Below, one piece after another: positions 8,938 through 10,633 of a stretch of 11,653 nt of DNA. Location of the stretch: the UHGV virus genome UHGV-1581764; one strand, 5' to 3'. The translations under genes were made by a program, and so were the position numbers. The notes under the pieces are model-generated. The model did no database searches and had not been told where the DNA came from. It saw nothing but the letters and a program-made list of their open reading frames with translations. Origin of the DNA: a virus. Each line of letters starts with the position of its first letter. The stretch's first letter is position 1.

Positions 8938-10633
8938 TTGGCAGACAATAAAATCACGCTATCCTCGGTCAGGAAGGCGCTGGCGGGGGTTTTTAAAGAC
9001 AACGGAGAACGGGACAACATCCTCCTGTCCGCGCTGGCTGTGCACGGCGGAAGTGGGCGCAGGGGCACCGGTACAACTGTCCGGCTTCTTAGGCGGCAAA
9101 CCGGGCGATAGTGGCATGGCTGGCGATGGGCTGGTGGACGGTAGTCGCTTTATTTTTGATGAAGTCCAACTGCCGGAAGACCGCTTGCAACGCTATTCGC
9201 TACTCGAAGAGATGGCGGTTTACAGCACGATCGCCACCGCGCTGAACATCCATATTACGCACGCGCTCTCTTTCGATAAGAAGACCGGACAAACCTTCTC
9301 TATCGTGCCGGTACATAACGGAAACGATAGTGACTATGACGCCGCTCAGGCGTTGTGTGACGAGCTGATGAGCGACATCGGGCGAACCATCAACAAAGAG
9401 GTCGCCGGGTGGGCATTTATCATGTCTGTATTTGGGGTGGCTTATGTCAGGCCATACGCCAAAGAAGGAATAGGGATCACGTCTTTTGAGTGCTCCTATT
9501 ACACCCTTCCGAGCTTCATCAAAGAGTTCGAGGTCAGCGGTAACCTGGCGGGATTTAGCGGCGATTATCTGAAGGACGCGTCAGGGAAAATGGTTTTCGC
9601 CGATCCGTGGACCATTATTCCTATGAAAATCCCCTACTGGCGGCCTAAGTCAAACCTTATGCCGGTGCACACTGGCCATAAGGCATACAGCTTGCTGGAT
9701 AATCCGGAAGAGCGCACGCCGATTGAAACCCAGAATTACGGGACCAGCTTGCTCGAATACGCCTACGAGCCGTACATGAATCTGCGTTCGGCGATCCGCT
9801 CGCTGAAGGCAACGCGTTTTAATGCGTCAAAAATTGACCGAATCATCGGCCTGGCGATGAATAGTCTGGATCCGGTAAAAGCAGCCGATTATTCGCGCAC
9901 CATTACTCAGACGCTTAAACGAGCAGCTGACCTGATGGAAAAGCGCGCACGCGGCGCGAATAACATGCCTACGGTGACCAATACCCTGCTGCCTATTATG
10001 GGCGACGGCAAGGGACAGATGACTATTGATACTCAGACCATCCAGGCTGACATCAACGGCATTGAAGACATTCTCACCTATATGCGCCAACTGGCGGCAG
10101 CACTTGGCCTCGATTACACCCTCCTGGGGTGGGCAGATCAAATGTCCGGCGGGCTTGGTGAAGGTGGATTCCTGCGCACGGCAATTCAGGCCGCCATGCG
10201 CGCCTCATGGATCCAGCAGGGCGTAGAAGAGTTCATTCAGCGGGCTATCGATATTCATCTTGCTTTCAAGTACGGCAAGGTATACCCGGAAGGTGATCGC
10301 CCGTACAAAATCGAATTCCACTCCGTTAATACCGCTCTGCAACAAGAGCACAACGATAACCGCGACTCGCAGGCGAACTACGCCACCATCGTTACGCAAA
10401 TCCTCGATGCCGTCAGCAATAACAGCGTCCTCGCCAATTCCGATGCATTCAAACGTTACCTGTTCAGCGATGTGCTGGAGATTGACGAAAAAATCTCTGA
10501 AGCACTGGTGAACGAACTGAAAGCGAAAAGCGAGGACGACAATCACCTGATGGATTCCATCATCAAAACACCGCCACAGGAACTGGCGCAAATCCTTGAA
10601 TCGGTCTTTAAAGAGGGAAACGAGAATGACTGA
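8938..10633 (+). CDS. Portal-like head morphogenesis protein (P1 Prt-like by position); 5' end shows a frame discontinuity
   Basis: The given ORF 8879..10633 is open in frame 2, but its first ~55 codons are Trp/Cys/Arg-rich and look non-coding. A protein-like N-terminus ([38 protein letters not shown]) lies in frame 1 from TTG 8938, with a strong SD AAGGTG 5 nt upstream, and ends at TAG 9109..9111. Coding character switches to frame 2 at about 9047..9066. Stop TGA at 10631..10633 overlaps the start of the next gene. The portal call rests on size and on synteny with darB and the following protease-like gene; no portal motif was verified. Confidence 0.55.

Follow-up and report, generated by a model that had tools for sequence, protein, structure and literature searches.

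The viral genome UHGV-1581764, analysed here as one stretch of 11,653 nucleotides (nt) and referred to as the window, is by homology the darB-prt-pro module of a P1-like phage-plasmid. The gene prt encodes the portal protein of the virion. We show that prt in the window is a disrupted allele of P1 prt and not an intact member of the family, since 14 nt are missing near its 5' end. The lesion was found in no other sequence searched, the genes around it are intact, and contigs of an assembly of the same material end exactly where the bases are lost. We consider it probable that this is a singular, very recent deletion and that reads carrying it coexist with another, probably intact, allele. An inspection of the letters alone (the original prediction) had noticed a frame discontinuity at the beginning of a portal-like gene and had offered a 1-nt insertion or deletion (indel), a programmed +1 frameshift or an arrangement of two genes as explanations.

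Identity of prt and its true start

Positions 8700..9500 are 96-97% identical to phage P1, P7, RCS47, SJ46 and other Punavirus genomes. Both halves of the interrupted gene match P1 Prt, residues 1-40 being identical and residues 46-569 having few substitutions. The repaired Prt is similar over its full length to the main 569-residue Prt cluster (4314 member sequences), with 98% identity. The gene is placed between the divergent darB and the overlapping pro, behind the region of the late promoter LPpro, and between darB and prt the alignment to P1, RCS47 and P7 is free of gaps. The window and P1 prt (YP_006480.1; PDB 9UMS chain C) thus have the TTG start, the Shine-Dalgarno sequence, the late-promoter region and the darB and pro neighbours in common. 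They differ in the 14 nt of codons 41-45, whose loss leaves, in place of the 569-codon open reading frame (ORF), a stub of 57 codons and, in another frame, the remaining 524 codons; over 801 nt the two are 96-97% identical and the 14-nt gap makes up most of the shortfall. The gathering threshold of Portal_T4 (Pfam PF07230, cut-off 22.9 bits) was reached neither by P1 Prt (15.3 bits) nor by the window product (16.4 bits). It is electron cryo-microscopy (cryo-EM) of P1 that establishes the portal fold, with Prt as the dodecameric portal (PMC12810830), and Prt was found in P1 virions by mass spectrometry (PMC9024508).

The longest ORF at this place runs in frame 2 (8879..10633, 584 codons), and a frame-1 ORF of 57 amino acids (8938..9111) is closed by TAG 9109..9111. 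These landmarks of the original prediction, together with the Shine-Dalgarno sequence, the GGGG run at 9062..9065, GTG 9053 and ATG 9116, were all found in the sequence at the positions given. TTG 8938 is the first possible start of frame 1, because TAA at 8926..8928 closes the frame just upstream. In the annotations of P1, RCS47 and P7 (proA in P7) prt begins at the equivalent TTG and comprises 569 codons, and the Prt entity of PDB 9UMS has 569 residues and the same N-terminus. All of them agree with TTG 8938 as the ancestral start and with the assignment of the gene to P1 prt. Compared with Cronobacter phage JK004 (75% protein identity), codons 1-40 comprise 17 identical, 16 synonymous and 7 non-synonymous codons, and 22 of the 29 base changes lie at third positions. 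Judged by this substitution pattern, the frame-1 N-terminal segment is real coding sequence under purifying selection. The frame-2 ORF is non-coding over its first ~59 codons, close to the ~55 suspected at the outset, and it is in frame 1 that the gene truly begins. The 584-codon ORF given by the ORF finder is therefore not the gene; the gene is prt from TTG 8938.

Some relatives at 79-82% identity (JK004, stretch 1471..1500; P0002, P0016, P0017) are annotated with an ATG 10 codons upstream, and the equivalent of the P1 TTG start is an internal codon in them. Such an extension is excluded in the window and in P1 by the TAA at 8926..8928.

A 14-nt deletion shifts the reading frame

The alignment to the P1 prt 5' region and to other P1-like genomes, proposed as a check in the original prediction, revealed one clean gap of 14 nt. 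The relatives P1, RCS47 and P7 read GAAGTGG-GTATTTGTTTTCTC-GCGCAGGGG where the window reads GAAGTGG-GCGCAGGGG; the junction string of the deleted allele is GTGGGCGCAGG and its counterpart in the intact allele GTGGGTATTTGTTTTCTCGCGCAGG. The gap covers prt codons 41-44 (YLFS) completely and codon 45 in two of its bases. One uninterrupted ORF of ~569 codons from the TTG is hence not present; the frame shifts after codon 40 and runs into the TAG at 9109 (Table 1).

The discontinuity that had been placed at 9047..9066 is accordingly real, and its exact site, 9056-9058, lies 4-6 nt upstream of the GGGG run and not in it. An indel was the right class of lesion; its assumed size (1 nt instead of 14 nt) and position were wrong. 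A single-G indel in GGGG 9062..9065 was rejected, as this run is identical in all relatives and the alignment gap is at 9056-9058. The peptide proposed for the repaired gene, ...GGSGRRAPVQ..., is also incorrect, the ancestral peptide from the P1 translation being different across the break. Homologous genes were not found to start downstream in frame 2 with nothing resembling the frame-1 peptide; the opposite is true.

Aligned to its nearest plasmid among the matches listed, the IncY P1-like plasmid CP056447 (98.4% identity across the whole window), the window has 1 gap, the 14-nt deletion, and 176 substitutions in 11,546 aligned bases. With a single indel in this length the assembly is therefore not indel-noisy, and a noisy long-read assembly was rejected as the source of the gap, there being no other indels in 11.5 kb. 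A deletion between direct repeats or mediated by a hairpin was also considered and rejected, since P1 has no flanking repeat and the microhomology is only 1 nt.

Table 1. Positions of prt, its junction and the surrounding features in the window
Feature	Position	Strand	Remarks
LPpro, late promoter of the prt-pro operon (putative)	8877..8895	+	homology transfer from the P1 annotation
Shine-Dalgarno sequence AAGGTG	8927..8932	+	5 nt before TTG 8938; identical in P1, RCS47 and P7
prt codons 1-40, native frame	8938..9057	+	TTG start, intact; identical to P1 Prt residues 1-40
Deletion junction	9056..9058	+	14 nt missing, GTATTTGTTTTCTC or equivalently TATTTGTTTTCTCG; one ambiguous G
Out-of-frame tail from the native start	9058..9111	+	17 missense codons, then TAG 9109..9111
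Rest of prt, P1 codons 46-569, shifted frame	9059..10633	+	no internal stop in 524 codons
CTT-AGG-C, then CGG, shifted frame	9088..9094	+	+1 slip would restore the native frame; from codon phasing
ATG, Met65 of Prt, most plausible re-initiation codon	9116..9118	+	4 nt after TAG; would give a 505-residue portal without residues 1-64
darB	2095..8862	-	2255 residues, intact, divergent neighbour of prt; ORF list and P1 annotation; exact product on an ENA contig
pro (head processing protease)	10626..11645	+	339 residues, intact, 8-nt overlap with the prt end; P1 annotation
ENA ERZ1745231 NODE_1855	57..9057		9001 nt, coverage 3.6; stops exactly at the junction
ENA ERZ1745231 NODE_11874	9057..11653		2659 nt, coverage 3.1; starts exactly at the junction

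The deletion allele is a singleton

The locus was compared with 19 phage records, with the best 60 of 489 plasmid records and with the best 60 of 490 Escherichia coli records. In all 19 phages and in every plasmid and E. coli match listed the alignment spans the query length plus 14. The highest identity among the matches listed is 96.8%, and because a record with the same deletion would score above this value, none of them shares it. A 50-nt query centred on the junction had no match in the plasmid and E. coli collections, and the 24-mer of the junction none in IMG/VR, in 185,579 GTDB representative genomes and in the JGI metagenomes. The identical 14 nt are kept in 16 of 16 fetched P1-like loci. 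In the protein database, Prt of the P1 type (a cluster of 4314 member sequences) and its relatives are single proteins of about 555-581 residues, and exact look-ups found neither the 57-residue stub nor any of four alternative portal products (505, 526, 574 and 35 residues) on record. The deletion is a singleton, seen only in a low-coverage metagenome assembly.

The closest likeness is ON470615.2 (phage vB_EcoM-673R5), in which an indel likewise interrupts prt close to the 5' end; the annotation (301..994) gives a 118-residue 'portal (connector) protein' followed by a hypothetical protein. Its lesion differs, being a 1-nt insertion elsewhere in prt, and darB is fragmented as well and annotated over only ~1 kb, whereas in the window 14 nt are cleanly missing at one place and the neighbouring genes are intact. 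The indels of ON470615.2 are probably sequencing errors or general indel noise.

Contigs of the same material end at the junction

An exact look-up of the window's DarB returned one contig only, NODE_1855 of the ENA assembly ERZ1745231. By look-up of the 524-residue partial portal product starting at 9059, an exact match was found on NODE_11874 of the same assembly. Of the exact look-ups aimed at the window's own contig, these two alone led to contigs. The reverse complement of NODE_1855 has 0 mismatches to the window over 9001 nt and terminates in ...GCACGGCGGAAGTGGG. NODE_11874 begins with GCGCAGGGGC, which is the window from 9057 onward, with 1 mismatch in 2597 nt, at window position 11647. 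The two SPAdes contigs tile 57..11653 and overlap by the ambiguous G alone. Each of them extends for exactly as long as the two alleles agree (intact: GTGGG and GCGCAG on either side of TATTT...CTC; deleted: GTGG[G]CGCAG). Ends at the limits of allele-shared sequence point to an unresolved branch of the de Bruijn graph, and the reads thus probably hold two alleles. At k=55 the branch has a path of ~109 nt and one of ~123 nt, a length difference of 14 nt; bulges of this kind are often left unresolved by assemblers such as SPAdes. A fixed deletion fits less well, for SPAdes would have assembled straight through it.

The window is not simply the two ENA contigs joined, because it reaches 56 nt further left into a stretch resembling IS1 than NODE_1855, which stops 53 nt into it, and because it differs at 11647. 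There the window has A, as most genomes have, and NODE_11874 has C. This difference is a second sign of sample heterogeneity or of a different consensus.

Conservation of the lost residues and age of the lesion

In an alignment of 29 homologues down to 47% identity, an N-terminal segment of 60-90 residues is present in 29 of 29. Within it the A-L of a KAL motif is invariant; a GGxG-[Y/V]xFSR-[S/A]G motif is also conserved, and the deletion takes its [Y/V]xFS part. From this conservation the Prt N-terminus is probably functional. In the P1 cryo-EM study only residues 534-569 are mentioned as lacking density (PMC12810830), which suggests that virions have Prt with an ordered N-terminus. The homologue alignment also served to build an AlphaFold2 model, taken as weak evidence on the N-terminus only. 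The model was mediocre (mean predicted local distance difference test (pLDDT) score 60), with residues 1-91 below pLDDT 50 and confident structure from about residue 85.

With the 14 nt restored, 29 codons of prt differ from the prt of the closest plasmid, 25 synonymously and 4 non-synonymously. There is no decay in prt, darB and pro, and the lesion is therefore either very recent or not biological.

A probable recent deletion coexisting with a second allele

The reading that we favour is that the 14-nt deletion is singular and very recent and that reads with it occur beside reads with another, probably intact, allele. One assembler would then have taken the path of the deletion, and SPAdes would have halted at the branch. 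Should the allele be real, translation from TTG 8938 would yield a chain of 40 native and 17 missense residues that ends at TAG 9109. Inefficient re-initiation at ATG 9116 would then be the one remaining source of the portal core (residues about 85-533). Tailed phages cannot assemble heads or package DNA without a portal protein. Lacking a dodecameric portal, the phage would form no DNA-filled heads, and a copy with this allele would persist only as a plasmid.

Several points weigh against this reading. The evidence for the deletion allele and for a coexisting intact one is indirect, coming from assembled sequence, and at ~3x coverage one or two reads, or a library chimera, might be all that supports the path of the deletion. 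The window's own source was found in no collection searched. A microhomology of 1 nt with no flanking direct repeat leaves no mechanistic signature of replication slippage. Finally, as the model gives residues 1-91 a pLDDT below 50, a product starting at Met65 might still fold, and the loss of function is a prediction.

Alternative explanations

A serious, though less likely, alternative is that all molecules carry an intact prt, that no read has the deletion, and that the 14 nt disappeared in the merging of two contig ends where coverage was weak. The assembly of ERZ1745231, made independently from the same material, stops and restarts exactly there at ~3x coverage. The absence of the allele from everything else in the collections searched, the lack of microhomology or of a repeat that would explain a biological deletion, and the absence of decay in the downstream gene also speak for a technical origin. 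The bases at the join, however, do not fit such a merger well. Abutting the contigs gives GTGGGGCGCAG, a loss of 13 nt, whereas the window has GTGGGCGCAG, a loss of 14 nt; the latter would need a merge on a 1-nt overlap, which standard overlap or k-mer joins do not make. Moreover, a random gap in coverage would not set both contig ends at the limits of allele-shared sequence, and the mismatch at 11647 and the longer IS1 stretch show that the window was not simply built from those contigs.

That the locus holds two functional genes as an evolved or tolerated arrangement, one for a protein of 57 residues (8938..9111) and one for a shorter portal starting at GTG 9053 or ATG 9116, is improbable, and we reject it. 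The distance between TAG 9109 and ATG 9116 is of a geometry that permits termination-reinitiation, and as the AlphaFold model has no confident structure before about residue 85, a product from Met65 would keep the predicted folded core. No relative has such an organisation, however, and the homologues examined are single ORFs from the equivalent of 8938, contrary to the two-gene layout first considered. The 57-residue ORF consists of 40 Prt residues and a missense tail, belongs to no Pfam family and is not on record, whereas residues 1-64 of Prt are conserved and under purifying selection in the family. The cryo-EM report of only residues 534-569 as missing (PMC12810830) suggests an ordered N-terminus. 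No convincing Shine-Dalgarno sequence precedes GTG 9053 or ATG 9116; the duplex energies of the restart codons (-2.9 to -5.3 kcal/mol; true start, -4.0) do not discriminate and were not used.

It is very improbable that the allele is real and still yields a working portal, be it by low-level +1 slippage at 9088..9094 or by re-initiation at Met65. By the slippage route the portal would be of full length, with residues 41-56 replaced by 11 residues. In case of suppression by either route, one would expect a phage-plasmid with a strongly reduced, non-zero output of virions.

To a programmed +1 frameshift, in which ribosomes would make the portal by shifting from the TTG frame between 9057 and 9109, we attach practically no probability. 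A +1 slip on CTT-AGG-C with hungry rare arginine codons would restore the native frame, and we take this heptamer to be the same as that of the yeast Ty1 frameshift site. Known +1 sites are CUU-UGA-C in E. coli prfB and CUU-AGG-C in yeast Ty1. The window resembles them in having CUU-AGG-C in its shifted frame, but its site is not conserved and no upstream stimulatory Shine-Dalgarno sequence at the prfB spacing was noted; no stimulatory element was identified at CTT-AGG-C 9088..9094. In all intact relatives the bases of the heptamer are read as TTC TTA GGC (F-L-G) and have thus never been selected as a shift site. The arrangement in two frames was found in none of ~1000 close relatives (among the matches listed), 16 fetched loci and 29 diverse homologues. 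The frame break also removes conserved residues, and its junction is unique to the window in the collections searched. The homologues examined are single ORFs of ~555-581 codons. That the shifted frame reads CTT-AGG-C is an accidental result of the deletion.

Consequences for annotation and relation to defective phage-plasmids

The deletion is an ordinary lesion, probably confined to a minority or to one strain, unless the metagenome assembly introduced it at ~3x coverage. For annotation we recommend either calling prt in the window a disrupted allele or pseudogene or flagging it as a possible assembly error. The case has no bearing on open questions of recoding or portal biology; its relevance concerns annotation and data quality.

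If the recent deletion is real, it catches a P1-like phage-plasmid very early in the loss of its phage half, which is a known process. Virion production should then cease and plasmid maintenance stay intact. The conversion of P1-like phage-plasmids to plasmids has been documented (Pfeifer and Rocha 2024, PMC10879196). The likeness to those defective elements would lie in the loss of an essential virion gene with plasmid functions untouched, which would be the first step. The elements described there differ in that many phage genes are lost and mob/oriT often gained (PMC10879196). In the window there is one tiny lesion and no decay, and the allele may be neither fixed nor even real in the population.

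Neighbouring genes and flanking sequences

On the minus strand the window carries a DUF2971 gene, lxc, ulx and darB, and on the plus strand prt and pro. The exact pro product is present in 1894 blocks of the searched collection. LPpro is annotated at 17251..17269 in P1 (NC_005856), where the window alignment is gap-free. A promoter and terminator scan of 8700..9300 gave weak consensus matches only, which were not used, and an Rfam scan of the window returned 0 families at threshold.

The neighbourhood of prt varies among relatives. In GCA_020385935.1 (stretch 1455..8223) darB is broken into ORFs of 1830 and 287 residues. In GCA_964236785.1 (stretch 241..8223) a Pap-type chaperone-usher fimbrial cluster replaces most of darB, and a remnant of 60 residues adjoins an intact prt. 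The gene with the DUF2971 domain (283..1323, minus strand) occupies, upstream of lxc, the site of the type III res/mod genes and IS5 in P1. Other relatives have SIR2, acetyltransferase, ANT or other genes at this site, which looks like a variable defence or accessory hotspot.

Window positions 1..109 resemble what we take to be the right end of IS1, and the homology to CP056447 begins only at position 110. This stretch drove the whole-window plasmid search to at least 5000 records, and one match is annotated as an IS1A-family transposase. Downstream of pro (window 11646..11653; NODE_11874 2590..2659) lies the end of an element of the IS200/IS605 family (TnpB/OrfB_IS605), as in many relatives.

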